42,013 nucleotides of DNA from positions 1 through 42,013 of the forward strand of contig CAZWEM010000043.1 of NCBI GenBank assembly GCA_964632315.1, in the 5' to 3' direction. This document shows positions 8,718 to 40,392 of this stretch, piece by piece. The DNA comes from an uncultured archaeon (GTDB lineage Archaea > Asgardarchaeota > Lokiarchaeia > Sigyniarchaeales > SOKP01). Below the pieces are notes generated by a model. That model worked only from the letters and a program-made list of their open reading frames with translations. It made no database searches and had not been told where the DNA came from. Each line of letters begins with the position of its first letter. Position 1 is the stretch's first letter. The position numbers and the translations under genes were made by a program.

Positions 8718-9875
8718 TTAATTTTGCACTTTATTAACAAAATATTTCTTATAAATCACGATACTTATAGCCAAGAGACCTGCAATTGCAGATATGATTA
8801 TAATTATTGTTAAAATGTCAGTGTCTAACACATTGATATCCTCTTTCCAAGGAAAATTTCCCTTATAGTTATTACTTGGAATATTTAGGTAATTATTATA
8901 AATAAATTGTTCGATAGTTTTGCCAGTTATTGCTAAACTTTGATTTGAGATATGAGTTAAATCATCGTGAGTTGTGTGATGATAAGACCAAGAAGGATTA
9001 TTCCAGAAGTTAATAATAAGATCTGCTGATGCTATGCCTTTCCCAACAAATGAAACATGATCATCAGTTATACTTGCAGAGATTGGATTTTTTGGGTAAG
9101 TTTCTGAGAATCCTAACTGGCGCCCAATTTCAAAAATTTCTTGTAATAGTGAAGAAGTAGAATACTGCTCATTGATAAATTGGAGACTATAGCCACCTAC
9201 CATATCTAATAATATCATGCAATCAAAATGTTCATTAGGATCATAAAAACTCTCTAAATTACTAGCAAAACGAGTAGAACCTTCGCACCAGCTCCAACCA
9301 TATATTCCATAATCATTATCATGGCCTTGATCCTCTGCATCAAAAAATAAGAACCAAATTTGACAATCTAATTTTGATCTTTCTTGATAAAGAATACGTG
9401 CTAATTCCAGAAGAGTTGCACATCCACTAGCTCCATCATTGGCTCCAGGTACGGGATCAGACCTTAAAGCGATATTTGGATCTTTTGTTGCTTTAGCTCG
9501 GGAGTCATAATGAGAGGCTAGAATTACAATGTTGTTGAATTGTTCATTCATTTTAAACACTATATTTTGGCATGCGATTGATGATACAGTGAAGTTATGT
9601 AAAAGATAAGTAAAATTTTCATCAATTTTTTGAAACTTACTTACGAAATACTCAAGACAGTCTTTTCGACCTTGAGTACCAGGAATTCGATAATCAGTGA
9701 GATTTAGATTTATTTGATCTCCGACCGTAATGTATGCATTATCTCCATTAAAACTTAACGAATAATCTACATTTCGAATAGCAGGAGGATTTAAGAGTAC
9801 AACAAGAATTACAGTCGGAATAGAAACAATAAGCAAAGATATTATTATAATTATAATTTTTGAAGCTCTTTTGAT
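8718..9875 (-). CDS. M28-family glutaminyl-peptide cyclotransferase-like protein with N-terminal signal/TM and C-terminal TM
   Basis: ASHYDSR, PGANDGASG, FFDAEDQG, WCEGS, LLDMVG, ITDDH, HHTTHDD; reading frame extends upstream of the TTG at 9836 to an ATC at 9875 behind AGGTGG. Confidence 0.8.
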   Translation of the reverse strand: MKRASKIIIIIISLLIVSIPTVILVVLLNPPAIRNVDYSLSFNGDNAYITVGDQINLNLTDYRIPGTQGRKDCLEYFVSKFQKIDENFTYLLHNFTVSSIACQNIVFKMNEQFNNIVILASHYDSRAKATKDPNIALRSDPVPGANDGASGCATLLELARILYQERSKLDCQIWFLFFDAEDQGHDNDYGIYGWSWCEGSTRFASNLESFYDPNEHFDCMILLDMVGGYSLQFINEQYSTSSLLQEIFEIGRQLGFSETYPKNPISASITDDHVSFVGKGIASADLIINFWNNPSWSYHHTTHDDLTHISNQSLAITGKTIEQFIYNNYLNIPSNNYKGNFPWKEDINVLDTDILTIIIIISAIAGLLAISIVIYKKYFVNKVQN

Positions 9876-9935: not shown

Positions 9936-10355
9936 TTATTTCGGCATAAACCCGAGATCTATTTTAGTTTCACCCTTGATTTCAGTTTCAAGAAATGTTA
10001 CCTTTACCGGTATTCCGATTTTGATTGTATCCGGCTTTGATTCATCTACTCCTACCAATTGACCAGAAATCATTGGTCCCTCGTCTAATTTTATTACAGA
10101 AAAACAGTATGGTTTCTTTCTATCGTATCCCTTTTCGATGAAATAAGGGGTTCCAACAGTGATACTTGTAAAAGCAGCCAGTTCCCCATTCCCAGACATT
10201 TCAACCCATTCCATATCAGCTGAATTACATTTAGTACATAACTTTCTCACCGGAATATACAATTCATTGCATTTCTTACAACGAGTTCCCATTAATTTCT
10301 TATTCTGGATAAATTCTAAATAATTTTGTATTGTAAAATCTTTTGATTCTGACAT
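9936..10355 (-). CDS. DUF35-type Zn-ribbon/OB-fold protein (thiolase partner)
   Basis: CKKC...PVRKLCTKC, MSGNGEL, IKLDEGP; directly downstream of the thiolase with AGGTGA ribosome-binding site. Confidence 0.92.
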   Translation of the reverse strand: MSESKDFTIQNYLEFIQNKKLMGTRCKKCNELYIPVRKLCTKCNSADMEWVEMSGNGELAAFTSITVGTPYFIEKGYDRKKPYCFSVIKLDEGPMISGQLVGVDESKPDTIKIGIPVKVTFLETEIKGETKIDLGFMPK

Positions 10356-10366
10356 TTTGATTCACC

Positions 10367-11626
10367 TCATTTTTCATAAATTGTGACAACACAAGTTCCT
10401 CCTGAACCTCCGAGATTGTGTGTCAAAGCTCGAGTAACATCGATTTTAACTTGTCTATTGCGTTCTGCTATTCCCCGCATCTGTTTAAATATCTCTACTG
10501 CTTGAGCCGCTCCGGTTGCACCTACAGGATGACCCTTACTCTTTAGTCCTCCTGATGTATTAATTGGTAAAACGCCATCTCTTTTAGATTCTCCATTTCG
10601 TACAGCTTCTGCAGCTTTCCCTTTTTCATAAAACCCAAGATCTTCCATAGCTAATATTTCTGCGATTGTAAAACAATCATGAACTTCCGCAATTTGAATA
10701 TCCCTTGGTTTTAATCCAGACATTTCATATGCTTGTCTTGACGCCTCTCTTGTTGCAATAAAACTTGTTAGACTATCTCTATCATGGAGGGATAATGCAG
10801 CACTTCCTTGACCAGTACCAGTTATCCAGATCGGAGAATCAGTAAATTTTTTTGCTACATCTTCAGCTGCTAAAAATAAACAAGCTGCACCATCTGTTAC
10901 CAAAGAACAATCGAATAATCGAAGCGGATAAGCAATCATAGGATTACTGCTGCTTTTGAGAAAATCAAACTCATCCTTCCAATCCGGAACATCCCTTCCT
11001 TCTTCTTGGTACCTTGCTTTTTTACTCGCCATCATATCTTTAATCGACTGTTGCATTTGAGCATACGGATTTTCAGCACCATTTATATGGTTCTTGATCC
11101 CTACATGCATCAGATCTTCAGCTGTAGTCCCGTACTTGTGAAAATGAGCGGTTGCAATAGTAGCATACAATCCTGGAAAAGTTGCGCCTGCTGGGTATTC
11201 AAATAAAGCATCACTTGCAGTAGCTAAAGTATCCGTTACCAATGCAGTGGGAAGTTCGTTCATGCATTCAACACCAGAAACTGCAATCACATCGTGAATC
11301 CCTGAAGCGATGGCTATGACTGCTTGTCTTAGCGCAATTCCCGAACTTGCACACGCTCCTTCGAATCTAGATGCTGGTTTTGGTGTTAAACCTACTAGAT
11401 TTGCCATTTGTGGCCCCAGGTGTCCTTGATGGTTGAATAGATCGCTCGAATAATTCCCAACATAGCACGCATCGACATCTTTAGGTGCAATTCCATTATC
11501 TACAGTTCCTACCGCATTTAACCATGCTTCGACCCACATATCCGGATTTCTTTTCAAGGGAAAATTTCTTCCGAATTTAGACATGCCAGCTCCAATTAAA
11601 GCGACTTTCCTTGCCAATTTTGCCAT
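10367..11626 (-). CDS. Thiolase, SCP2/archaeal type (acetyl-CoA C-acyltransferase)
   Basis: EGACASSG nucleophilic Cys, EVHDCF, GGLKSKGHPVGATG, HNLGG. Confidence 0.93.
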   Translation of the reverse strand: MAKLARKVALIGAGMSKFGRNFPLKRNPDMWVEAWLNAVGTVDNGIAPKDVDACYVGNYSSDLFNHQGHLGPQMANLVGLTPKPASRFEGACASSGIALRQAVIAIASGIHDVIAVSGVECMNELPTALVTDTLATASDALFEYPAGATFPGLYATIATAHFHKYGTTAEDLMHVGIKNHINGAENPYAQMQQSIKDMMASKKARYQEEGRDVPDWKDEFDFLKSSSNPMIAYPLRLFDCSLVTDGAACLFLAAEDVAKKFTDSPIWITGTGQGSAALSLHDRDSLTSFIATREASRQAYEMSGLKPRDIQIAEVHDCFTIAEILAMEDLGFYEKGKAAEAVRNGESKRDGVLPINTSGGLKSKGHPVGATGAAQAVEIFKQMRGIAERNRQVKIDVTRALTHNLGGSGGTCVVTIYEK

Positions 11627-13078: not shown

Positions 13079-13513
13079 ATGTCAGATTTAAAAGCAGTCA
13101 AATGGGAAGATTATAAAGTTGGTGACTCTGCAGAATTTTCTAAAACAATTACTGAAGAAGATGTCATGAAATTTGCTGAAGTGACTGGAGATTACAACCC
13201 AATCCATGTGAATCCCGAATATGCAAAAACCCAAATGTTTGGGAAACAAGTAGCTCATGGGGCATTAAGTTCTGGTTTAATTTCAGCTGTATTAGGAACA
13301 AAATTATTTGGACCAGGTATATTATATGGTGGACAGACTGTTAAATTCATCAAACCCGTGTATTTTGGTGATACGCTTACTGCTATTGCAACTGTAAAAG
13401 AAAAATTCACTAAAAAAGAAGGAAAATTAAAATTCATAATTGCTGAAACCGTTGTTAAAAATCAAGATGGAGAGATTGTCACCTCGGGAGAAGGGACAAT
13501 AGTCTTCATGTAA
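13079..13513 (+). CDS. MaoC/PhaJ-type (R)-specific enoyl-CoA hydratase
   Basis: FAEVTGDYNPIH (D-x4-H), VAHG, FIKPVYFGD. Confidence 0.93.
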   Translation: MSDLKAVKWEDYKVGDSAEFSKTITEEDVMKFAEVTGDYNPIHVNPEYAKTQMFGKQVAHGALSSGLISAVLGTKLFGPGILYGGQTVKFIKPVYFGDTLTAIATVKEKFTKKEGKLKFIIAETVVKNQDGEIVTSGEGTIVFM

Positions 13514-15427: not shown

Positions 15428-15973
15428 TTAATATTCTATCCCAAATCGAGCTTTTATACCTTTAGAAGCATAATAATGCTTTATTAATGTCATTTCAGTG
15501 AGCAAATCCGCTTCTTGTTTAATTTTTGGATGCATTTTTGGCCCTCCAGTTAAGATTAATTCCACTTTTGGTGGCTTTTTTTTAATCAATCCTAAAACGT
15601 CATTGACATCTACCACTCCATATTCTACTGCTACTCCTATTTCATCCAAAATAACAATATCATATTCATCACTCAAGATAATCTCTTCAGCAAACTTTAA
15701 TGCTTTTCTACCCTCTTCTAAATCGATTTCTTCTGGACTAGCTATCAATTTATCGGTTCCAAACTGTTTAAGTTCAAAATTTGGAGTGTTTTTTATTGCT
15801 TTTACCTCTCCATAAGCAGTATCTCCTTTCATGAATTGAATCATGTAAACTTTGAACCCGTGTCCTGTTGCCCGAAATCCTTGACCAAGTGCAGCAGTGG
15901 TTTTTCCCTTACCCCTACCAAAATATACTTGAACCATTCCTTGCGATAATCTCTTACGAGTCATTCCATTCAC
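15428..15973 (-). CDS. Cob(I)yrinic acid a,c-diamide / cob(I)alamin adenosyltransferase, CobA/BtuR/CobO type
   Basis: YFGRGKGKTTAALG, IQFMKG, ILDEI, ELILTG, ADLLTEM, GIEY. Confidence 0.93.
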   Translation of the reverse strand: MNGMTRKRLSQGMVQVYFGRGKGKTTAALGQGFRATGHGFKVYMIQFMKGDTAYGEVKAIKNTPNFELKQFGTDKLIASPEEIDLEEGRKALKFAEEIILSDEYDIVILDEIGVAVEYGVVDVNDVLGLIKKKPPKVELILTGGPKMHPKIKQEADLLTEMTLIKHYYASKGIKARFGIEY

Positions 15974-16050: not shown

Positions 16051-17181
16051 ATGATTAATAGGGATTTGAAATATAAAATGGCTAAAATAGAAAGAGATGA
16101 AGTTTATAGAGAATTACAAGTTCATTTGGATAAGATGCCCGTAGGATTTCCAGCAACTAAATCCGGTTCAGATATTCGGGTTTTAAAACATTTATTCTCG
16201 CCAGAGGAAGCAAAAATTGCAACGTTCTTGAAATTTGGATGGGATAGAGATCTTGAAACTATTGATACTATCTATGATCGAGCTAAAGATAGTGGCTATA
16301 CTAAAGATGAACTTGAATCTAAATTAGATGAAATGGGTAAGAAGGGGCTTATCATGACGAAGAGAGAATCCGGGCAGAAATTTTATGGTAATGCTTTACT
16401 AATGGTGGGAATATTTGAATTCCAAGTAAATCGCCTCAAAAAAGAGTTTATCAAAGATTTTCATGATTATTTTGACCAAGGGTGGCTTCCAGAAGCATTT
16501 AAAGTAAAGGGAGCACAACTCAGGACCATTCCCGTAGAAAAAAGCATAACTATGGAACACAATGTCGCTGATTTTGATAATCTTTCAAAGTTATTAGAAA
16601 CCACTACTGGCCCTTATATGGTGACAAATTGTATCTGTAAGCAACTAAAGGACATGGAAGGTCAACCCTGTAAAGTTACAGCCCGTCGAGAAGTTTGCAT
16701 GGGATTCGGAAACGCAGCTCAATTATATATTGATCAAGGTTGGGGCAGAGAAATTACTAAGGATGAAGCGATTGATATTCTTAATAAAAACCAAGACGAG
16801 GGCCTAGTATTGCAGCCAGATAATGCTCAAGAATTAAGTTTTATTTGTTCTTGTTGCTCTTGTTGTTGTGAATCATTGACAAGATACCTTAAAATCCCCT
16901 ATCCTGGAAAAGTTTCAATAAGTAATTTCTATACTGAAATAGATGAAGATTTATGCACTGGCTGTGGGACATGCATCGAAATATGCCCCATGGAAGCAAT
17001 AGAACCTTTAAATAACATTTCAATGATTAAACGTGAGAGATGTATAGGTTGTGGGAATTGTGTAGCAAAATGTCCTTCAGATGCGATCTCACTAAATAAG
17101 AAAGAAAAAGAATTTGTACCATATAAAACCATGGATGATCTATTTGATAGGATAATGCAACGAAAATTAGCTCAAAAATAA
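16051..17181 (+). CDS. Fe-S protein: N-terminal HTH-like region, Cys cluster and C-terminal 2x[4Fe-4S] ferredoxin domain
   Basis: CICK, C...C, ICSCCSCCC, CTGCGTCIEICP, CIGCGNCVAKCP; true start may be ATG 16078. Confidence 0.88.
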   Translation: MINRDLKYKMAKIERDEVYRELQVHLDKMPVGFPATKSGSDIRVLKHLFSPEEAKIATFLKFGWDRDLETIDTIYDRAKDSGYTKDELESKLDEMGKKGLIMTKRESGQKFYGNALLMVGIFEFQVNRLKKEFIKDFHDYFDQGWLPEAFKVKGAQLRTIPVEKSITMEHNVADFDNLSKLLETTTGPYMVTNCICKQLKDMEGQPCKVTARREVCMGFGNAAQLYIDQGWGREITKDEAIDILNKNQDEGLVLQPDNAQELSFICSCCSCCCESLTRYLKIPYPGKVSISNFYTEIDEDLCTGCGTCIEICPMEAIEPLNNISMIKRERCIGCGNCVAKCPSDAISLNKKEKEFVPYKTMDDLFDRIMQRKLAQK

Positions 17182-17578: not shown

Positions 17579-18718
17579 ATGTATTCAAAACCAAAAAAAA
17601 TTGGTCCAATTGAAATTAAAAATCGATTTGTAAGGTCTGCAACTTTTGAAGGAATGGCTACTGAAGATGGTTATGTTACTGAAAAGCATTTAGAATTATA
17701 CAAGAATTTGGCTCAAGGTGGAGTTGGATTAATAATTACAGGTTATGCATATGTTCAAGAAAACGGAAGAGCATTCGATAAACAAACTGGTGTTAGTAAA
17801 GATGAATTTATTCCTGGCTTACGTAAAATTGCTGAAATCGTTCATAAAAATGGAAAAGGCTGCAAAGTCACATTGCAAATAGCACATTGTGGACGCCAAT
17901 CCAGAATTCTTGAAAACACTATTGCTCCTTCAGCACTGGAGGAAAAATTAACTAGGAAAATGCCTAGAGAAATGACTAAGGAGGAAATTGAAGAATTAAT
18001 TGATGCTTTTGCTCATGCCATTAGAAGGGCAAAAGAAGCAGGATACGACGCTGTACAGCTACACGGTGCTCATGGATATATCATTACTCAATTTTTATCT
18101 CCTTATATCAACATCAGAAAGGATGAATATGGAGGAAACTTAGAGAATCGAGTCAGATTCCTTGAGGAAATATATAGCAAAGGTATTGAATTAGTAGGGA
18201 AAGATTTTCCTATCTTTATAAAAATGAACGCAGTTGATTTTGTAGAAGGAGGGTCAACCTTGGAAGAATCAATTGAAGTTGCTAAAAAGTTAGAAAAGAT
18301 AGGTTATGCTGCTATAGAAGTTAGCGCTGGAATCTGGGAGGTGGCAAAAATGAAAAAGAAGGATCTTGGGTGGAAACCAACCTTTTTACCAGAAAGTAGG
18401 ATATTTATTGGAACTATGAATGAACCAGCTTATAACTTAGTTTATGCAAGAGAATTTAAGAAAAATCTTAAAATCCCTGTAATTGTAATTGGCGGAATTA
18501 ATTCCCTTGATCTGGTTGAAGAAATTTTGTCTACAAATAGTGCTGACTTTGTATCCTTTTCTAGACCATTAATTCGCGAACCAAATCTTCCAAATCGATG
18601 GATGAAAGGTATTGGAAATCGAGAAGTTGAATGCATATTTTGTAATGGTTGTTTGTCAACAACAGTCGATCCTGGTTTAAGTTGTACCAAGATATTAGAA
18701 AAAGATGAAAAGGAGTAA
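17579..18718 (+). CDS. NADH:flavin oxidoreductase (Old Yellow Enzyme family)
   Basis: KNRFVRSAT, GGVGLIITG, QIAHCGRQ, AGYDAVQLHGAHGY, SRPLIREP, C-terminal CIFCNGC. Confidence 0.93.
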   Translation: MYSKPKKIGPIEIKNRFVRSATFEGMATEDGYVTEKHLELYKNLAQGGVGLIITGYAYVQENGRAFDKQTGVSKDEFIPGLRKIAEIVHKNGKGCKVTLQIAHCGRQSRILENTIAPSALEEKLTRKMPREMTKEEIEELIDAFAHAIRRAKEAGYDAVQLHGAHGYIITQFLSPYINIRKDEYGGNLENRVRFLEEIYSKGIELVGKDFPIFIKMNAVDFVEGGSTLEESIEVAKKLEKIGYAAIEVSAGIWEVAKMKKKDLGWKPTFLPESRIFIGTMNEPAYNLVYAREFKKNLKIPVIVIGGINSLDLVEEILSTNSADFVSFSRPLIREPNLPNRWMKGIGNREVECIFCNGCLSTTVDPGLSCTKILEKDEKE

Positions 18719-18761
18719 TTTTGATTACCATTTAATTAAAAAATTTCTTATTCGTGATCTT

Positions 18762-19526
18762 ATGGGTGAATATGAGACTTTAGATGCTTCAATAAATAAA
18801 TTTCTTAGATTAGCTACATTCTCAGTAGCAATAAAGCTATTCGAGTTTCCCGACGAGTTAGAATCGATCCAATTTTTAAAAAAACCAGAAAAAGATATAG
18901 CTTTATGTCAAATTTTTAGTTACGCGAGATATTATGGTTGGACTATGGGTTGTACGAAAGAGGATAATATTTGTCCGCTTGCTGATATAGCATTAGGATT
19001 TGAAAAAAGAAGTAAATTATTTGAAGAGGGGGCATTTTTTATTGGAAGATATAACTCTAATAAAAAAGCCGCTAAAAAAACCTCTGCTTCAATGTCTAAC
19101 ATCCCTTATGGAAAATTTAGCGCGATTGTTGCTGGCGCTTTAAGTCGAATAGATTTTTTACCGGATTTAATTTTGATCTGGGGAAATTCAGCTCAAATAA
19201 TGCGAATAATACAAGGTTATTTATGGAATAAGGGGGGAAAGATCTCAATGTCAACATTCTGTGATGGAGTGTGCGCTGATACCATTAGCAATGCTATTAT
19301 TACTGGAGAGCTTCAAATTGCGTTTCCTTGTTTAGGAGATCGCAGATTTGGAATGGCTTTAGATAGCGATCTAATAGCCTCAATCCCTTTTGCTTTAATT
19401 GATGAGATCATCAAAGGAATGGCTGAAACCCATAAAGCAGGTACCAGATATCCCATTCCTTTTCAATTATCTACCCCAGAGTTTTTCCTTAAATTAAAAA
19501 AACGATTAAAACGAGTGAATAAATAA
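18762..19526 (+). CDS. DUF169 family protein
   Basis: VAIKL, LCQ...AR, ICP...ALG, PDLILIWGNSAQIMR, GVCAD, PCLGDR; start likely ATG 18762. Confidence 0.85.
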   Translation: MGEYETLDASINKFLRLATFSVAIKLFEFPDELESIQFLKKPEKDIALCQIFSYARYYGWTMGCTKEDNICPLADIALGFEKRSKLFEEGAFFIGRYNSNKKAAKKTSASMSNIPYGKFSAIVAGALSRIDFLPDLILIWGNSAQIMRIIQGYLWNKGGKISMSTFCDGVCADTISNAIITGELQIAFPCLGDRRFGMALDSDLIASIPFALIDEIIKGMAETHKAGTRYPIPFQLSTPEFFLKLKKRLKRVNK

Positions 19527-19569: not shown

Positions 19570-20451
19570 TTGAATTCAGAGGGGATTTTTACTATAAAAT
19601 CAAAATTAATAACGTTAGAAGAAGCAATTCAAGAGCATGTGAAAGATGGAGATTTAATTGGTATTGGAGGTCTATCTTTTTGGAGGAAGCCAATGGGCTT
19701 ATGTCGCGAACTCATTCGTCAATCTAAAAGGCAATTAACATTATGCACTTTTGTTGGTGGAATTGAAGTGGATATGCTGATTGGAGCAGGATTAATCTCT
19801 GAAATAAAGGCTTGTTTCGTTGGAATGGAGATTTTCGGAATGGCGCCAAATTATCGAAAGGCAGTCGAATCTGGATCTATTAAGGTATCTGAAGAATCAG
19901 AGGCAACAATTGCTTTAGGATTAAGAGCATCGTATCTTAAAGTCCCTTTTATGCCATTAAAAGGAATTATTGGTACTGATTTTCTCAAAGTGAGAGATGA
20001 TATTAAAGAAATAGAAGATCCCCTTGGTTCAGGAACACGAGTTGTTGCTGTACCTAAAATTGATTTGGATGTTGCTTTATTACACGTACCATATGCAGAC
20101 GAATATGGAAATTGCAATATTGCGGGTGCTGTTTGGATGGATGATGACATAGCAAAAACTGCAAAGAAAACTATAGTTACTGCAGAAAGGATCGTGGAAA
20201 CTGAAGATATTAGATATTTACCAGGTAAAGCTCAATTGCCCCAGCAAACCACTAAAGCAGTGGTGAAACTACCGTTTGGAGCACATCCTACATCTTGTTA
20301 TGATAAATATACGTTTGATGCTACTCACATTCAATCCTATCTAAATATGGATTTCGAAAAGTACAAGCAAAATTACATCGACTTAGCTTCTCATTCGGAA
20401 TACTTAGATCGTGCGGGAGGAGCAAAAATGATCTTAGATATCCTATTATGA
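19570..20451 (+). CDS. Family I CoA-transferase-like alpha subunit (GctA/IpdA-like)
   Basis: GIGG...RKPM, DMLIGAG, LRASYLKVPFMP, DVALLH...DEYGN, PFGAHPTSC. Confidence 0.9.
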   Translation: MNSEGIFTIKSKLITLEEAIQEHVKDGDLIGIGGLSFWRKPMGLCRELIRQSKRQLTLCTFVGGIEVDMLIGAGLISEIKACFVGMEIFGMAPNYRKAVESGSIKVSEESEATIALGLRASYLKVPFMPLKGIIGTDFLKVRDDIKEIEDPLGSGTRVVAVPKIDLDVALLHVPYADEYGNCNIAGAVWMDDDIAKTAKKTIVTAERIVETEDIRYLPGKAQLPQQTTKAVVKLPFGAHPTSCYDKYTFDATHIQSYLNMDFEKYKQNYIDLASHSEYLDRAGGAKMILDILL

Positions 20452-20474
20452 CTTTCTTGATAGGATTTTGGTTC

Positions 20475-20903
20475 TTAATCATTTAATTTTAGATATTCTA
20501 CTAATCTATTTAGCACAATAAGATTATATTCCCAATTTAAGAAATTTCTAGCTTCCGCTTCAGTGCACCACTTATATTCTTGATGTTCATTACTCAAAGT
20601 GATTTTTCTTTTTTTATTGATCTCAACGGCAAAACAAATTTCTTTCATCTTTGTAAGATTTCCGTGCCACATCGTTTCAAACGTAAAACTATAATTCAAG
20701 TTAATAATGTTTTTGAGTTCTTTTATCCCTGTTTCTTCAAATAATTCTCTCTTTACCGTGTCAATTGGTTTCTCTCCCCTCTCTATACCTCCACTTATAG
20801 GTTGCCAATAACTATTCCTTTCTGGGACTCTTTGTAAGATTAATATTCTAAATATTGGAGTTTTTGTGAACACTAAGACTTGGACATTAATTCGCCCAAT
20901 CAT
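20475..20903 (-). CDS. NUDIX hydrolase (NudB-like)
   Basis: WQPISGGIERGE...RELFEETGI Nudix box; LSNEHQEYKW. Confidence 0.9.
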   Translation of the reverse strand: MIGRINVQVLVFTKTPIFRILILQRVPERNSYWQPISGGIERGEKPIDTVKRELFEETGIKELKNIINLNYSFTFETMWHGNLTKMKEICFAVEINKKRKITLSNEHQEYKWCTEAEARNFLNWEYNLIVLNRLVEYLKLND

Positions 20904-20971
20904 AGTTATAAATAATCAAAAAAATTATTTTAATAATTTTGGTTAACTTATATTTAAGATTAATTCTTCAA

Positions 20972-21475
20972 TTAAGCACTGGTATATTCCCTATTTTTGG
21001 AAAAAAAACCTAAACCAATTAGACCAGCACCTATAAAAGGCAAAATTATACCTAGAAAAGGTGTGTATCCACCACCAGTAAGAATCCAATGATTGTACCC
21101 ACTTGAATTATAAAAACCTTCCATCATAAAAATCCAAAATAGAGTCGAAGCTACAATTAACAATGCCATAACGAGACTCGTCCATCTGAGTTTCTTAAAA
21201 CTCAATGAGTTTCGAATATGAACAATAGTGAGTGTTATTGTTATAATTGAGCTTGTAATAATAATTAACATTAATATCCAAGAAACCAATACAAGTATCA
21301 CATCAGTTCTTAAAAGGTATATTGCCAGAGGTTCAGCATCAACACCTATCTGTGTCATCCAAACATAATAAAGAGTCGGAGTTGTATCATTAAAGCTGGT
21401 TGGAATTAAAACTGAAATAAATGATAAAATTCCTCCTAAAATGCTAAAAACCCAAAAATAATATCTAATTCTCAA
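20972..21475 (-). CDS. Hypothetical membrane protein (about 4 TM)
   Basis: Four hydrophobic segments in an intact ORF. Confidence 0.7.
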   Translation of the reverse strand: MRIRYYFWVFSILGGILSFISVLIPTSFNDTTPTLYYVWMTQIGVDAEPLAIYLLRTDVILVLVSWILMLIIITSSIITITLTIVHIRNSLSFKKLRWTSLVMALLIVASTLFWIFMMEGFYNSSGYNHWILTGGGYTPFLGIILPFIGAGLIGLGFFSKNREYTSA

Positions 21476-21589
21476 TTTAAATCATATTGTTAAATTTAAT
21501 ATAATTATTTTTAGCGAAGCAGCATAAATTAAAAAGGCTTCTGGTCTTCTATAAGTATATTTTAAAACCGATTTAAATGCTTAACTGCG

Positions 21590-22942
21590 ATGTCTGTTCA
21601 AATTTCGACTAAAGAAGAAATAATGGCGTGGATAACGAGTATCTATAAACAAGGTATCCGAAGACCTGGCTATGATGCTGATTACTGGGTTGAAACTTGG
21701 ATTAAGGAAAAATTGGAAGCTTTTGATTTTAATCAGATTACTCTTCAAACGCTTAAAATTAAGAGATGGAGATTTGAGAATCCTAAACTGCAAGTATGGA
21801 AAGGTGATAATCCTGAAGATGTTTTAGAGATTCCTTGTTTTCCCATTCCATATACAGCATCAGCAAAAGATGTAAATGGACAAATAACTAAAAATCAAAA
21901 AGAGGATTTAAGTGGAAAAATAATCCTAAACCGCTTTAATCTTATTAAATTACCAACGTCTTCTTTAAAAAGTCTTTCAAATAGATATTACGATCCTAGA
22001 GATGAATTTGATTCGCTTGATCAACTCATGCCGACTGGCTTTTTTAATAATCTAATGCAAGATGCGATACACGGGGGCGCTTCTGCTTTCATTGGATATA
22101 TCAGTAATTATCCTTGGGAAACTCAAGATTATTACGCTCCGTACGATGCTTTAGAAAAGAAAATACCTGGGGTTTGGATCAGCCCTAAAAATGGCAGGAA
22201 ATTAAATAATATGTTATTGAATAATCCAATTCATGCCAAGATCAATTACGAAGCTCAAATTGAAAGAGTTCAAACAAATAATATCTTTGGAATTTTAGAA
22301 GGTACATCAGATGAGTGGGTGATCATTAGCACGCATCATGATGCACCTTGGGCGTCTGCTACAGAAGAGGCTTCAGGCATCGCGCTAGTTCTTGCTCAAG
22401 CTAAATATTGGTCAGAAGTTCCTAAAAAAGACCGCCCCTTTAATCTCCTTTTCTTATGGAATTGTGCTCACATGGCAGGAGGGAAAGGCGGAAGATTTTT
22501 TGTAAAAAAAAATAAAAAATTACTTGAAAAGGTTGTGGTTTCTATTGTACTTGAACATGTGGCTCGAGATTGTAAAAAAGAAGAGGGAAAATTAATTCCA
22601 CTAAACGATCCCGTAGTAAGATGGTGGTTTACAACAAAAAACTCAGTATTGCAAAATATTACTCTTAAAGCTATCAAGAAAGAAGATTTATATCGTTCTA
22701 TAATCATGCCAACTGAAGGATTTCCTCCAGGATCGAAATATCCCCCTACAGATGCAGCTCAATTTCATCTTGCGGGAGTTCCAATTATTTCACTTCTCTC
22801 AGCACCACCATATCTCTTCGATCCTGCAGATACATTAGATAAAGTACATACATCTAGCTTAGAACCGATAACGAGAGCTGTTATTTACATTATTCAACAA
22901 CTCAAAGGTAAAAGGGCTTCAGAAACAAGAAGACAACTTTAA
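21590..22942 (+). CDS. M28-like peptidase/amidohydrolase with PA-like insert and atypical metal ligands
   Basis: RRPG, IPGVWISP, NNIFGIL, STHHDA, EEASG, PPTDA, DPADTLDKV. Confidence 0.78.
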   Translation: MSVQISTKEEIMAWITSIYKQGIRRPGYDADYWVETWIKEKLEAFDFNQITLQTLKIKRWRFENPKLQVWKGDNPEDVLEIPCFPIPYTASAKDVNGQITKNQKEDLSGKIILNRFNLIKLPTSSLKSLSNRYYDPRDEFDSLDQLMPTGFFNNLMQDAIHGGASAFIGYISNYPWETQDYYAPYDALEKKIPGVWISPKNGRKLNNMLLNNPIHAKINYEAQIERVQTNNIFGILEGTSDEWVIISTHHDAPWASATEEASGIALVLAQAKYWSEVPKKDRPFNLLFLWNCAHMAGGKGGRFFVKKNKKLLEKVVVSIVLEHVARDCKKEEGKLIPLNDPVVRWWFTTKNSVLQNITLKAIKKEDLYRSIIMPTEGFPPGSKYPPTDAAQFHLAGVPIISLLSAPPYLFDPADTLDKVHTSSLEPITRAVIYIIQQLKGKRASETRRQL

Positions 22943-23088
22943 AGTTTCTAATTCATTTTCTATTTTTAAGTTTAAATCAACCTTTTTTTAGTGATAATTA
23001 GTGTATATTAATACGACTTTAGAAACACTCAATAATCTAAGCTCGTGTTATATTGTAAAGTTTATGAAAAAAATAAGTGAGTTAAAGT

Positions 23089-23862
23089 ATGCAAAATAAT
23101 GAAACTATTGAACTAATAAATAAGCGACGAACTATCCGTGCTTATAATTCTAAACCACTTACTAATCAAGAAGAGAATATTATTATACAGGCCGCAATGA
23201 GAGCTCCGACCGCTGGAAATCTGATGCTTTACTCTGTTTTAAAAATTAGTGACCAAAAGTTGAAAGATAAGTTAGCTATTACCTGTGATAATCAACCTCA
23301 CATAGCAAAAGCCCCCTTAGTTTTAATATTCTTAGCTGATGTACAAAGGTGGTGGGATTATTTTAAAATCTGTGATGTACAACAGAAATGTGATAAAATG
23401 AAAGTCAATTTTGAACTCCCACAAGAATCTGATTTACTTTTAGCATGTTGTGATGCCTTAATTGCTGCACAAAATGCAGTTGTTGCAGCTGAAGCTTTAG
23501 GAATTGGCTCATGTTATATTGGAGATATAATGGAGAATTATGAAACTCATAAGGAAATCCTTAATTTACCCAATTGGGTTTTCCCGATAACCTTAATTTG
23601 TTTTGGGCATCCAAAAGGAGATAAAGAAAAAATACCACTTAAGTCTCGTTTTCCTCAAAACTATATTGTTCATGATAACGTATATCATAGGTTAAACGGA
23701 GAGGATTATAAAAAGATGTTTAAAGGAGTTGAAAGAATGAGGATTATTGAATATGCGGAAAACCTCGGACAGCAAATTTATTTTGAAAAACTTGGAGCTG
23801 ATTTTTCTAAAGAAATGCGACGTTCAGTGAAAGCTGCATTACAAGAATGGATTAGTAAATAA
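23089..23862 (+). CDS. Nitroreductase / NADPH-flavin oxidoreductase (NfsA/FRP-like)
   Basis: RRTIRAY, RAPTAGNL, DALIAAQN...AEALGIGSCYIG, FGHP, KSRFP. Confidence 0.92.
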   Translation: MQNNETIELINKRRTIRAYNSKPLTNQEENIIIQAAMRAPTAGNLMLYSVLKISDQKLKDKLAITCDNQPHIAKAPLVLIFLADVQRWWDYFKICDVQQKCDKMKVNFELPQESDLLLACCDALIAAQNAVVAAEALGIGSCYIGDIMENYETHKEILNLPNWVFPITLICFGHPKGDKEKIPLKSRFPQNYIVHDNVYHRLNGEDYKKMFKGVERMRIIEYAENLGQQIYFEKLGADFSKEMRRSVKAALQEWISK

Positions 23863-23895
23863 TATATATAAAATTAAAATTTTAGTAGAATAGAA

Positions 23896-24777
23896 ATGAC
23901 AGAATTTGCAAAAAGTTATACCACGGATGAACTGATGACAGTTTTAATGTCAAGAGAAGTCCGTAATGATGATGTAATGATTGTAGGGGTTGCAACACCC
24001 ATGGTATGGGCCGCTTTCACCTTAGCAAAATTAACACACGCACCAGATGCTATATATCATTATATCATGGGAAACACGTTCGTAAGAGAAGCTCGTCAAG
24101 TTTCCCTCTTATACCTTGAAATGAATACTACCAGAGCTTATAGATTTCAGAACAGCTGCGAATGTACTTTGGAATCATTGCCATCTGAAAAATTGACAAC
24201 AATTGAGTTTTTCCGACCTGCTCAAGTAGACCAATATGGAAACACGAACAATATATGTATAGGAGACTGGAATAAACCGAAAATTCGATTACCAGGATGT
24301 GCTGGAATAGCGGATTTTAGCATGTTTTATTCACGTGGCTCATTTCTATATACACCTCGACATGATACCAGAACATTCGTTCCATCTGAACAACTTTATT
24401 TTATATCAGGTGTAGGATTTCCAGAGGGAAAATATAGTATTTGTGGAGGTGCTGGTCCTCAATGCGTCATTACGAATTTAGCATACCTTGATTTTGATGA
24501 AGAAACAAAGAAAATGAGATTGAAATCAATCCATCCTGATTTTGAGCTTGAACATATCAAAAAGTCTACTGGTTTTGATATGATAATACCTGAAGATGTG
24601 GATTGTACTAAACCTCCAACTGTGGATGAATTAAGGTTATTAAGGGAGAAAGTAGATCCTTTGGGAATCAGAAAACTTGAAGTCCTCGCGGGTAAAGAGA
24701 GAGAAGAACTCTTAGATCATATAATTCAAAAAGAAAAGCAATTTGTCAATCGATTTCCTAAAATCATTCAATATTAA
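23896..24777 (+). CDS. Family I CoA-transferase-like beta subunit (GctB/IpdB-like)
   Basis: VGVATP, AKLTHAP, AQVDQYGNTN, RLPGCAG, GPQCVITNL, IHP, TGF, PPT..EL..LR..VDP. Confidence 0.9.
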   Translation: MTEFAKSYTTDELMTVLMSREVRNDDVMIVGVATPMVWAAFTLAKLTHAPDAIYHYIMGNTFVREARQVSLLYLEMNTTRAYRFQNSCECTLESLPSEKLTTIEFFRPAQVDQYGNTNNICIGDWNKPKIRLPGCAGIADFSMFYSRGSFLYTPRHDTRTFVPSEQLYFISGVGFPEGKYSICGGAGPQCVITNLAYLDFDEETKKMRLKSIHPDFELEHIKKSTGFDMIIPEDVDCTKPPTVDELRLLREKVDPLGIRKLEVLAGKEREELLDHIIQKEKQFVNRFPKIIQY

Positions 24778-28214: not shown

Positions 28215-29183
28215 TTACTCGTTCTTCAACTCAAACTTGATATTCTCGAATTTATCATGAATTGATTTGTAAATCTTAAATTTTCCATCATTCAATGCTT
28301 TTTTAACAAAGTCTTCGATTTCCCCTTCTTTCACCAATTCTTCGAATACAATTTTTTCCATTTTATACAATAACAGCTGTAGTATCTTATATTCAAACCG
28401 ATTTTGTCTTTTTTCAATAAGCAATTCTGAAAGCTCTAAATGCTCTTTATGATCATTAATCTGTTCGATAAGCTTATCAACACCTTCTCCTGAAAGAGCA
28501 TCAGTCATTGATACAGGAGGCCTCCAGCCCGTTTCAAAAGTGGTATCATCCAACATCATCTCAACTTGAACCGCCACATCTTCCCCACCAAGATCTTTTT
28601 TGTTGACATCATAGATATCACCAATTTCAATAATACCGGCTTTTTGCATTTGAATCGCATCGCCATAACCTGGTACTAGCACCACTACAACTGTATAAGC
28701 TAGATTATAAATATCAAATTCGGCTTGTCCAACTCCAACAGTTTCAATAATAATAAAATCCATCCCAAATGCTTCGTATAACAAGCTAATGTCAAAAACT
28801 GCTCTTGATATACCACCCTTAAAACCACGAGAAGCAAGACTTCGCATAAATACATTCGGATGTAAGGAGATATTCGTCATTCGAACTCTATCTCCAAGGA
28901 AAGCACCTCCACTGAATGGACTGGTTGGATCAACACATATAATCCCAATGGACTTTCCAGTATCCAATAATTTTTGCACTATAGCACCAGTAAGCGTGCT
29001 TTTTCCCACGCCAGGTGAACCAGTTATTCCAACGATGTAGGCATCATTTTTAATATCTTCAAAATGAGAAAATATTTCAGACGCAGTTTCGGGTTCATTC
29101 TCTAAAATTGTTATCAATTTCGCTAACGCAATTTTGTCTTTTTTCTTGAATCGTTCAATTAAAGCTTCTAATTCATCTTTCAA
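28215..29183 (-). CDS. meaB: MeaB/ArgK GTPase chaperone of B12-dependent acyl-CoA mutases
   Basis: GITGSPGVGKST, VDPTSPFSGGAFLGDRVRM, ETVGVGQAE, GDAIQ..KAGIIE, NKKD. Confidence 0.95.
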   Translation of the reverse strand: MKDELEALIERFKKKDKIALAKLITILENEPETASEIFSHFEDIKNDAYIVGITGSPGVGKSTLTGAIVQKLLDTGKSIGIICVDPTSPFSGGAFLGDRVRMTNISLHPNVFMRSLASRGFKGGISRAVFDISLLYEAFGMDFIIIETVGVGQAEFDIYNLAYTVVVVLVPGYGDAIQMQKAGIIEIGDIYDVNKKDLGGEDVAVQVEMMLDDTTFETGWRPPVSMTDALSGEGVDKLIEQINDHKEHLELSELLIEKRQNRFEYKILQLLLYKMEKIVFEELVKEGEIEDFVKKALNDGKFKIYKSIHDKFENIKFELKNE

Positions 29184-38307: not shown

Positions 38308-38706
38308 CTATTTTTTCACATTTTCACGGATGAAATTAACAATTTCTGAAGTCATCGAGCCAGGACCATAAACATTAGCGACACCAATTGATCTTAACTT
38401 TACGAAATCTTTAGCAGGAATTACTCCACCAACTAAGATAAGAATGTTTTCAAAGACACCTTTTTCTTTTAAAATGTCAATAAGTTGTTGAGTATATGCG
38501 AAATGAGCTCCCGAATGAATGCTTAACCCGATCACATCAACGTCCTCTTGAATGGCAGCTGCAGCTATTTGTTCAACATTTTGAAAGCCTCCAAATATTA
38601 ACTCCATTCCAGCATCTCTTAAAGCACGTGACACCACGATTCCCCCTCTCCAGTGTCCATCTATTCCTGGTTTTGACATTAAAACTCTAATCTTTTTTTC
38701 TGACAT
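38308..38706 (-). CDS. B12-binding small subunit of acyl-CoA mutase
   Basis: KPGIDGHWRG (DxHxxG), AIQEDVDVIGLS, VGGVIP, YGPG. Confidence 0.93.
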   Translation of the reverse strand: MSEKKIRVLMSKPGIDGHWRGGIVVSRALRDAGMELIFGGFQNVEQIAAAAIQEDVDVIGLSIHSGAHFAYTQQLIDILKEKGVFENILILVGGVIPAKDFVKLRSIGVANVYGPGSMTSEIVNFIRENVKK

Positions 38707-38718
38707 TCAAATTACCTC

Positions 38719-40392
38719 CTATATTGCTAATGGGGGTTCCCATATTCCGTATATTTCTCGGTAGATATCACATACTTCTTGTACAGTTGCGCCTTCCTTC
38801 GTTGCCTCCATAACAGCGGGCATCACATTTTCTTCTTTTTCACAGACTTTTCTTAGCTTATCCAACGCTGCTTGCAATTTGTTTTCATCCCTTCTTGCTT
38901 TTAACTTGTTTATGCGATCTATTTCTATCTGTATGCTTTTAGGATTCGTTCTAAACACATCCGTTACAGTGTCATAATCAACTGGATATTTATTTACTCC
39001 AAGCATTATTTCTTCTTTAGTTTCAAGCTTCATCCGTCGCTTGTGGAAAGCATCTCGCATTTCTTTATAAAGCCATCCTGAGGATAATGCTTTATCAATG
39101 CTCCCTACTTTTTCTATTTTATCCATATAGTTCCAAACCTTCTCTTCTATTTCATCGGTTAAGTATTCAACATAGTAAGAACCAGCTAATGGATCTATAG
39201 TGTTCGCAATTCTAGTCTCATCTGAAATAACTTGCTGGGTCCTTAAAGCAACTAAAGCCGCTTCTTTGCTTGGCAGGCAAATTGCCTCATCAAAACTATT
39301 GGTATGAAGGGATTGACATCCGCCAAGATTGGCTTCTAATCCTTGAATTGCAGTACGAACAATATTAATCAAGGGTAGTTGGGCCGTCAAGGAGCTTCCT
39401 GCAGTTTGTACGTGAAACCTAAATTGAAGAGATCTCGGATCTTGAGCATCGTATCGCTCTTTCATTAACTTCGCCCAGATTCTCCTTGCTGCTCTGTATT
39501 TAGCTACTTCTTCGAAGAAATCTTTGTGTGCTGCAAGATGGAAAGCTAATCGATTTACGAAGTCGTCAATCTTCCACCCACGAGCAATCAAGTTATCAAT
39601 ATGAGAAATTGCACTCGCAAATACGAAACCTAATTCTTGAACCGCATCGATCCCTCCTTCGCGGTAATTATAGCCTGTAAAATTAATTGGATGCCAATTT
39701 GGTACATTCTTTTGAGGGACTGTCCATTCAATGAAATCACAAGCTAAACGAAGTAAATGATTTGGAGGACAGTTTTTATAAGGTATGTAGCCAACGGTCA
39801 TTGTTAAAATGTCATTCTGAGTCGTACCCATTAGTGATGATATGTCATAGCCCCGCATTTTAGCCATATTAAAGTACATTGCACATACAGGTGCGCATGT
39901 AAATGGTTCAACAACTAAAGCAACACTAATTTTATCTATAGGTATATCTTCTGTAAGGGCAAAAAGAGAATCGATGCAATACAATGGAACCCCGCTTGTT
40001 CCGACTTCAGGTGCACCATCTCTATTAGTTGGATCTATTCCATTGAAAGTTAAGGCATCAACAGCAGCGCTGAAACCAGTCTCTCCATTTTCATACAGAT
40101 ATTTCCAGCGCAGGTTTGTCTCTTCAGGGGTTCCATGGCCAGAAAATAAGCGCATTGTCCATAAACGCCCGCGATACATATTGGGATAGACTCCTCTTGT
40201 ATATGGTTCCTGTCCGGGAAATCCAATTTTTTCAAAATAATCTCCTTTTACATCCAATGGGGTATACAGTTTTTTAACCTGTATTCCAGAATCTGTTTGA
40301 AATTTGACGTCTCGTTCTTTTTTGCTTTTAACCTTTTCGTCCCAATTTTCTTTTTCTTTTTTTAATTTATCTAGAAAATTTTTGTCATACAC
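38719..40392 (-). CDS. Acyl-CoA mutase large (substrate-binding) subunit, methylmalonyl-CoA mutase family, atypical specificity residues
   Basis: FPGQEPYTRG, WTMR, GTTQNDIL, FEEVAKYRAARRIW, QTAGSSLT, GGCQSLHTNSFDEA, DPLAGSYYVE. Confidence 0.93.
   Translation of the reverse strand: MYDKNFLDKLKKEKENWDEKVKSKKERDVKFQTDSGIQVKKLYTPLDVKGDYFEKIGFPGQEPYTRGVYPNMYRGRLWTMRLFSGHGTPEETNLRWKYLYENGETGFSAAVDALTFNGIDPTNRDGAPEVGTSGVPLYCIDSLFALTEDIPIDKISVALVVEPFTCAPVCAMYFNMAKMRGYDISSLMGTTQNDILTMTVGYIPYKNCPPNHLLRLACDFIEWTVPQKNVPNWHPINFTGYNYREGGIDAVQELGFVFASAISHIDNLIARGWKIDDFVNRLAFHLAAHKDFFEEVAKYRAARRIWAKLMKERYDAQDPRSLQFRFHVQTAGSSLTAQLPLINIVRTAIQGLEANLGGCQSLHTNSFDEAICLPSKEAALVALRTQQVISDETRIANTIDPLAGSYYVEYLTDEIEEKVWNYMDKIEKVGSIDKALSSGWLYKEMRDAFHKRRMKLETKEEIMLGVNKYPVDYDTVTDVFRTNPKSIQIEIDRINKLKARRDENKLQAALDKLRKVCEKEENVMPAVMEATKEGATVQEVCDIYREIYGIWEPPLAI

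Follow-up and report, generated by a model that had tools for sequence, protein, structure and literature searches.

A glutaconate CoA-transferase-fold subunit pair without the beta-subunit catalytic glutamate in an Asgard archaeon: probably not a CoA-transferase

Contig CAZWEM010000043.1 (G000:C43, GC content ~32%), the whole 42,013-nt stretch of DNA that was analysed and is referred to below as the window, belongs to an Asgard archaeon with a 4.45 Mb, 99.5% complete genome (G000), and encodes the alpha and beta subunits of a protein with the glutaconate CoA-transferase (GCT) fold. The closest database relatives are metagenome-assembled genomes labelled Promethearchaeota or Lokiarchaeota. The open reading frames (ORFs) of the alpha subunit (19570–20451, + strand, 293 aa, TTG start) and of the beta subunit (23896–24777, + strand, 293 aa) are intact, and each passes the cut-off of the Pfam CoA_trans family (PF01144; E-values 3.6e-18 and 6e-8, respectively), while NCBIfam possesses no model for beta and gives only weak, sub-threshold matches for alpha. 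The residue numbering of alpha used here hinges on the TTG start, as the relatives start about 9 residues later. In the window the two genes are 3.4 kb apart, and the intervening genes, identified with Pfam, encode a NUDIX protein (20475–20903, − strand), a membrane protein (20972–21475, − strand), an M28 peptidase (21590–22942, + strand) and a nitroreductase-fold, NfsA-like flavoprotein (23089–23862, + strand; Pfam Nitroreductase 3.7e-19, NCBIfam NfsA 3.5e-39, below the cut-off), the last of which ends 33 nt upstream of beta. The range 19570–24777 does not constitute a single operon.

The layout itself is real, because contigs from four separate marsh-sediment studies span the alpha/NUDIX, M28/nitroreductase and nitroreductase/beta junctions. 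In most of the related loci that were compared (denoted by L-numbers) alpha and beta are neighbours or are parted by the nitroreductase gene alone, the order alpha-nitroreductase-beta being found in L025, L026, L028, L030, L032, L039–L043 and others. The NUDIX, membrane-protein and M28 genes are missing between alpha and nitroreductase in the closest relative (L039); this three-gene insertion (20475–22942) is recent and is not a part of the enzyme. Alpha and beta are a true pair.

The original prediction, made from the nucleotide sequence of the window, had placed beta Ile57 in the column of the catalytic glutamate of GctB and alpha Glu111 in the column of IpdA Glu105, and both placements were confirmed. 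All the motifs on which it relied are present in the ORFs: HAPDAIYHYIMG at residues 48–59 of beta, and GIGG...RKPM at residues 31–42 (GIGG at 31–34) and SEESEATIALGL at residues 107–118 of alpha. Alignments with PDB sequences and with profiles, gapless from the APD motif onwards, equate beta Ile57 with GctB Glu54 (VESG), AibB Cys56 and IpdB Gly57. This agrees with the published equivalence of Glu54 of GctB and Gly57 of IpdB (PMC5380842) and with the report that Cys56B of AibB takes the place of the Gct glutamate (PMC7756340). The E-values of the alignments range from 1e-26 to 1e-58, hence the match of residues is not due to chance. The beta subunit retains the HAPD motif and an x-A-G loop, and the loop at residues 134–137 reads GCAG (GCAGI), compared to GSGGA in GctB. 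Among 156 beta sequences (representatives of clusters at 50% identity together with relatives from the fetched loci), SGG is found in 11 of the 12 that bear the catalytic Glu and in 4 of the 144 that do not. Thus, the GSGG loop tracks the catalytic Glu, and beta has lost a second signature of the transferases as well.

The gain on the partner subunit is likewise seen in the alignments. The column of alpha Glu111 is occupied by Glu in the IpdA structures 6co6 and 6co9, by Ala in 6coj, by Gln in GctA and by Gly in AibA, and the title of 6coj ('IpdAB E105A') ties it to IpdA Glu105, a residue that we take to be catalytic from this title and from general knowledge. Among the 13 aligned relatives, which come from Lokiarchaeial, Jordarchaeial, Bathyarchaeotal and Chloroflexota genomes and reach down to 37% identity, Glu111 and Glu108 (motif SEESEA) never vary. 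The two columns differ in the breadth of their conservation: that of Glu108 holds Glu in IpdA and AibA and Asp in GctA and is conserved family-wide, including most of the fused alpha-beta relatives, while the second Glu is found in only two fused proteins, of which one has a beta motif of the GN type. Glu111 is therefore a mark of the subfamily and not a general feature of the family.

The same genome provides a control. A second pair, at G000:C5:25588–27249 (L001, L002, L132), adjoins a gene for an AMP-forming acyl-CoA synthetase and is canonical and Gct-type, with FFEAGG (including the Glu) and PGSGGAN in beta and Asn in the 111 column of alpha, so the swap in the active site is specific to the window pair. 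Both window subunits are strongly constrained: among the orthologues of the Lokiarchaeial family (f1 among the 27 Asgard families, with 151 genomes, that were compared) the identity is 66–86% for alpha and 73–87% for beta. The orthologues from Jordarchaeia (f19) are ~50% identical, the proteins of a Helarchaeota-labelled group 58–65%, and the homologues from Bathyarchaeota and Chloroflexota, together with one Aneurinibacillus protein, ~40%. Position 57 of beta is Ile, Leu or His in the orthologues, and in the surrounding clade of 43–49 leaves it is Ile, Leu, His, Ala, Thr or another residue, never Glu; all Glu-bearing sequences are in the other half of the tree. The phylogeny thus places the window clade within a Glu-less clade, and the Glu-less state of beta is ancient as judged from this sequence tree.

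Sequence comparison with solved structures identified the same three systems for both subunits, namely GctA (1e-42), IpdA (8e-33) and AibA (3e-23) for alpha, and GctB (3e-26), AibB (1e-17) and IpdB (7e-12) for beta. In the AlphaFold2 models (pLDDT 86.9 for alpha and 90.8 for beta) Ile57 of beta comes directly after the strand 53–56, and Glu111 of alpha opens the helix 111–122. The alpha model superimposes equally well on GctA and IpdA (TM-score 0.86 in both cases), the models fit 1POI with TM-scores of 0.74–0.86, and the top Foldseek match of beta is AibB. A comparison of a modelled structure with IpdAB and GctAB had been proposed as a check of the original prediction; the single-subunit models support the shared fold and do not tell the systems apart, since GctAB, IpdAB and AibAB score alike in the fold search.

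Taken together, these features argue that the window pair is very probably not a CoA-transferase, as had been predicted. The beta Glu and the GSGG loop are lost and a Glu, invariant in the relatives, is gained on the alpha subunit, which makes other acyl-CoA chemistry probable, and IpdAB, which possesses the same alpha Glu, shows no CoA-transferase activity (PMC5380842). GctAB from Acidaminococcus fermentans (1POI) is the closest solved relative of both subunits, with the same subunit sizes and fold, yet it differs from the window pair in Glu54, in the GSGGA loop and in the Gln of GctA. With IpdAB from Mycobacterium tuberculosis and Rhodococcus jostii (the hydrolase that cleaves the ring of COCHEA-CoA; 6CO6, 6CO9, 6COJ, 6CON) the pair shares the GCT-type alpha/beta fold, the Glu-less beta and the E-x-x-E arrangement of alpha (REMDEG in IpdA, SEESEA here), but the Gly-Glu of IpdB is replaced by Ile-Met, and the host is an archaeon. 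With AibA/AibB from Myxococcus xanthus (3-methylglutaconyl-CoA decarboxylase; 5MZW–5N03) it shares the Glu-less beta, the HAPD motif, the x-A-G loop and an acidic residue near AibB Glu72, but AibA exhibits Gly (REHDGY) in place of the invariant Glu111. HMG-CoA (3-hydroxy-3-methylglutaryl-CoA) synthase, HMG-CoA dehydratase and an AibC-type reductase were not found among the annotated genes of the window; no genome-wide search was made for them. Glu-less enzymes of the GCT fold are a known kind, of which the window pair is a distinct, archaeal variant, orthologous to neither IpdAB nor AibAB; its clade joins an IpdA-type alpha Glu with AibB-like features of beta, in the neighbourhood of a B12-dependent mutase. 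The literature searches revealed no archaeal example and no description of such a pair, in agreement with the earlier statement that no characterised archaeal example is known.

The genes around the pair suggest an acyl-CoA pathway. Three genes upstream run co-directionally into alpha: one for an Fe-S protein whose N-terminal domain has no assignment (16051–17181, + strand; Pfam Fer4), which recurs in some relatives; one for an Old Yellow Enzyme-type FMN reductase (17579–18718, + strand; Pfam Oxidored_FMN 1e-67), which recurs only in L144; and a DUF169 gene (18705–19526, + strand; Pfam DUF169 5.5e-48), whose ORF overlaps that of the reductase by 14 nt and which lies directly upstream of alpha. 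No gene precedes alpha directly more often than DUF169 does (L030, L041, L045, L047, L051–L054, L057, L058, L070 and L145); a literature search for this family revealed nothing useful. The gene for an ATP:corrinoid adenosyltransferase, CobA/BtuR (15428–15973, − strand; Pfam CobA_CobO_BtuR 1.3e-55), is divergent from alpha; it adjoins alpha in L034–L036, L068 and L147 and is close by in most other loci. A MaoC-type (R)-specific enoyl-CoA hydratase (13079–13513, + strand; Pfam MaoC_dehydratas 2.2e-26) is syntenic in L030, L034–L036, L054, L058, L066, L068, L070 and L147 and is also encoded near the Helarchaeota-like pairs in L133, L139 and L140. An SCP-x-type thiolase (10367–11626, − strand; Pfam Thiolase_C_1, NCBIfam thiolase-domain family) and its DUF35/OB-fold partner (9936–10355, − strand; Pfam OB_ChsH2_C and zf-ChsH2) are syntenic as well. 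On the other side of the pair, the gene for MeaB/ArgK, the G-protein chaperone of B12 acyl-CoA mutases (28215–29183, − strand; Pfam MeaB 5e-76, TIGR00750 above the cut-off), is the next gene after beta in L035, L036 and L147. In these three loci the cluster is compact and reads MaoC, CobA (−), alpha, beta, MeaB (−), mutase small subunit (−), mutase large subunit (−), with the thiolase/DUF35 pair beside it; the same genes are all present in the window, where insertions have moved them further apart.

The mutase is encoded in the window by genes for a small (38308–38706, − strand) and a large subunit (38719–40392, − strand), both identified with Pfam; it bears the signature motifs WTMRLFSGH, QNDILTMTVGY and GYNYRE and adjoins MeaB and beta in the compact loci. 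Its best match in the PDB is HcmA, the 2-hydroxyisobutyryl-CoA mutase (HCM), with an E-value of 2e-128, compared to 1e-95 for methylmalonyl-CoA mutase (MCM). It exhibits Phe at the position of MCM Tyr89, Tyr at Arg207, Asn at His244, and Ala at HCM Asp117, and is therefore neither MCM nor HCM. The Arg with which MCM binds the carboxylate is missing, and the signature is retained in the Jordarchaeial orthologue, where the Arg207 column holds Phe; the substrate of the divergent mutase probably lacks a free carboxylate.

The phyletic distribution connects the subfamily with the metabolism of the B12 mutases, with only two lineages behind it. Orthologues of alpha and beta are found in 24 of the 25 genomes of f1, in all six of f19 and in no other Asgard family; orthologues of the divergent mutase (at least 68% identity) are found in 23/25 and 5/6, respectively, the best match in the other families being 48% identical. 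Methylmalonyl-CoA epimerase above the cut-off is found in none of the 25 f1 and none of the 6 f19 genomes, compared to 26/26 in f7 and 18/19 in f12, and the carboxyltransferase (PF01039) in 1/25 and 0/6, compared to 24/26 and 18/19. Searches of G000 and of the closed genome G038 revealed neither of the two. The pair and the mutase are apart in f19 (at 2.77 and 3.24 Mb in G038). Canonical MCM is present as well, in two further genes elsewhere in G000, with no partner enzyme at these loci, and in G038. Jordarchaeia also possess a Glu-less E-x-x-E paralogue of the pair (40% identity, KEYSEL in alpha) about 1.7 kb from a canonical MCM gene and a DUF35 gene. Four Chloroflexota genomes with 40% identical homologues contain MCM, epimerase and carboxyltransferase, and the divergent mutase is absent from them.

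As to the reaction, an IpdAB-like general-base mechanism, in which a 3-oxo- or enoyl-acyl-CoA is hydrated and cleaved in a retro-Claisen reaction, is tentatively favoured as the single most likely chemistry, because among the solved relatives the invariant alpha Glu is common only with IpdA. IpdAB itself carries out a retro-Claisen hydrolysis of a ring (PMC5380842, PMC6678751), and, according to a figure legend, the IpdAB-like cluster of Sterolibacterium also includes a benzoylsuccinyl-CoA-thiolase-type pair (PMC6678751). By analogy, the alpha/beta heteromer would bind an acyl-CoA in the conserved CoA site, beta Gly137 (corresponding to AibB Gly134) would polarise the thioester carbonyl through its backbone NH, and water and the enolisable carbon could have alpha Glu111 as their general base or acid, leading to hydration and hydrolytic cleavage of the C-C bond. 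The steps of the MaoC hydratase and the thiolase would naturally flank this reaction, and a thiolase is expected downstream of IpdAB too.

Several observations weigh against this reading. The profile scores are higher for GctAB than for IpdAB with both alpha (199 bits, 9e-58, compared to 169 bits) and beta (181 bits, 3e-52, compared to 144 bits), AibAB having the lowest scores of the three, and the identity to IpdA and IpdB is only 20–29%. Two features of beta are reminiscent of AibB: the x-A-G loop, and Glu75, which aligns within one residue of AibB Glu72 (PMC7756340). No genes for ring formation, steroid metabolism or crotonase-type ring opening were found in the neighbourhood, including those of the ipdC, ipdF, echA20, fadA6 or KstR2 type, which were looked for among the window and syntenic neighbours; instead, the pair is surrounded by a B12 mutase cluster. 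The 40% identical Chloroflexota homologues sit among genes for tRNA synthetases, proteases, transporters and kinases, with no pathway context. Since GctAB scores higher for both subunits, the window pair is not an orthologue of IpdAB as far as the sequence profiles can tell. The original prediction of a hydrolase of a cyclic beta-keto acyl-CoA is therefore retained in part: the swap in the active site is indeed IpdAB-like, while neither orthology to IpdAB nor a steroid or ring context is supported and nothing points to a cyclic substrate. A steroid ring is an improbable substrate; an intermediate from an acyl-CoA pathway of Lokiarchaeia which also uses MaoC, thiolase/DUF35, the divergent mutase, MeaB and CobA is more likely.

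Or perhaps the pair could be a biotin-independent decarboxylase? An AibAB-like enzyme acting on a methylmalonyl-, ethylmalonyl- or glutaconyl-type carboxy-acyl-CoA is comparably plausible, if somewhat less favoured; CO2 would leave, the enolate might be reprotonated by beta Glu75 or alpha Glu111, and B12 mutase chemistry could conceivably be linked in this way to propionyl- or crotonyl-CoA without epimerase or carboxyltransferase. The x-A-G loop of beta resembles the GVAGA loop of AibB, and a hydrophobic residue at position 57, such as Ile, is compatible with decarboxylation, because the C56A and C56V variants of AibB stay active (PMC7756340). The confinement of the pair to f1 and f19, i.e. 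to families that lack the epimerase and, save for one genome, the carboxyltransferase, also fits, as do the canonical MCM of G000 and G038 and the location of the Jordarchaeial paralogue near such a gene. On the other hand, this complementarity comes from two lineages only, the four Chloroflexota genomes combine the homologues with the complete set of classical enzymes, the 19 crotonase-family genes of G000 could supply a YgfG-type decarboxylase, AibA exhibits Gly in the column of Glu111, and in the syntenic mutase the Arg that binds the carboxylate is replaced by Tyr (window) or Phe (Jordarchaeia). A methylmalonyl-CoA decarboxylase beside a canonical MCM was considered as a specific version of this explanation and is weakened, the adjacent mutase being non-canonical. 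The invariant pair of alpha glutamates can also be read differently, as Glu111 and Glu108 moving the alpha-proton of a 2-methyl-branched acyl-CoA of the B12 mutases, which would make the pair an acyl-CoA epimerase or isomerase standing in for the absent methylmalonyl-CoA epimerase. The pair and the divergent mutase share exactly two families and are syntenic in f1, and no epimerase was found above the cut-off in either family. There is precedent for recruitment of a CoA-transferase fold for racemisation in alpha-methylacyl-CoA racemase, a member of family III, but we know of none in family I; moreover, Glu108 is conserved throughout the family (in AibA and IpdA as well as in most of the fused relatives), which leaves a single base that stands out, and the Chloroflexota homologues coexist with a normal epimerase. 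We regard an epimerase as distinctly improbable. The broader proposal, that in Lokiarchaeial and Jordarchaeial archaea the B12 acyl-CoA mutases have their missing partner in this pair, as a GCT-fold decarboxylase or epimerase that needs no biotin and stands in for both epimerase and carboxyltransferase, is speculative and rather unlikely; the orthologue would then be paired with the divergent mutase and the 40% identical paralogue with canonical MCM.

A genuine CoA-transferase with an unconventional nucleophile (alpha Glu111 or beta Glu75), which would activate an acid substrate of the mutase pathway, appears improbable. In its favour, fold and CoA-binding core are preserved, a step that activates an acid with CoA would suit the conserved cluster, in which no acyl-CoA ligase is encoded, and CoA-transferases are known in other mutase operons, e.g. 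the sbm operon of E. coli. However, both the catalytic Glu and the GSGG loop are gone, IpdAB transfers no CoA in spite of the same alpha Glu (PMC5380842), and the genome keeps a canonical pair elsewhere. Beta Glu75 is no replacement nucleophile either, because an acidic residue is conserved there family-wide, including the canonical members. Finally, a crippled transferase site could hydrolyse the thioester, as the CtfAB variant E46D, titled a hydrolase in the PDB, indicates that the fold is able to do; but the invariant alpha Glu and the age and diversity of the Glu-less clade argue for a specific reaction and not for leakage, and the genome possesses dedicated 4HBT thioesterases, so that an acyl-CoA thioesterase is very unlikely.

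To our knowledge, the characterised Glu-less enzymes of the GCT fold are limited to the hydrolase IpdAB and the decarboxylase AibAB, yet the Glu-less proteins form a large and old radiation (144 of the 156 beta sequences). In Asgard archaea the clade of the window pair is tied to a B12 acyl-CoA mutase and has a distribution complementary to that of the classical methylmalonyl-CoA enzymes. Identification of its reaction would provide the correct name for a family routinely mis-annotated as "glutaconate CoA-transferase subunit A/B", could reveal a third type of reaction on the GCT scaffold, and would supply a missing step in the acyl-CoA metabolism of the closest archaeal relatives of eukaryotes. 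Should the broader proposal of a missing mutase partner turn out to be true, succinyl- or branched-acyl-CoA would be connected with propionyl- or short-chain acyl-CoA by a new route.

Some further features of the related loci are worth recording. In the Jordarchaeial loci L125 (G070:C21:877–10439) and L126 the canonical MCM gene is followed by a DUF35 gene, an unannotated gap of ~1.3 kb and the Glu-less alpha/beta paralogue, after which the cluster continues with a DUF35 gene, a thiolase gene and a canonical Glu-bearing alpha/beta pair. The surroundings of the Jordarchaeial orthologue in L029 gave no clue to the pathway. In the Helarchaeota-like group no mutase was found within the contigs, which reach 8–11 kb to either side of the pair; two small conserved genes lie directly upstream of alpha, and a homocitrate/isopropylmalate-synthase-like (HMGL-like) gene is located near the pair (L133:3520–4857, − strand, with equivalents in L138–L140). 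The spacer between alpha and beta accepts varied insertions in the relatives (L044, L054, L056, L058, L066 and L045), including a threonine biosynthesis cassette (an ACT-domain protein, homoserine dehydrogenase, threonine synthase and a HAD hydrolase), a thiolase-like TLP1 gene and, in L045, a NosD-like beta-helix protein together with a second copy of alpha. The nitroreductase, threonine cassette, thiolase-like and NosD-like genes were considered as partners of the enzyme and look unrelated to it. There are also several paralogues of the M28 peptidase family, at 8718–9836 (− strand) and 21590–22942 (+ strand) in the window and at L131:13138–14325.

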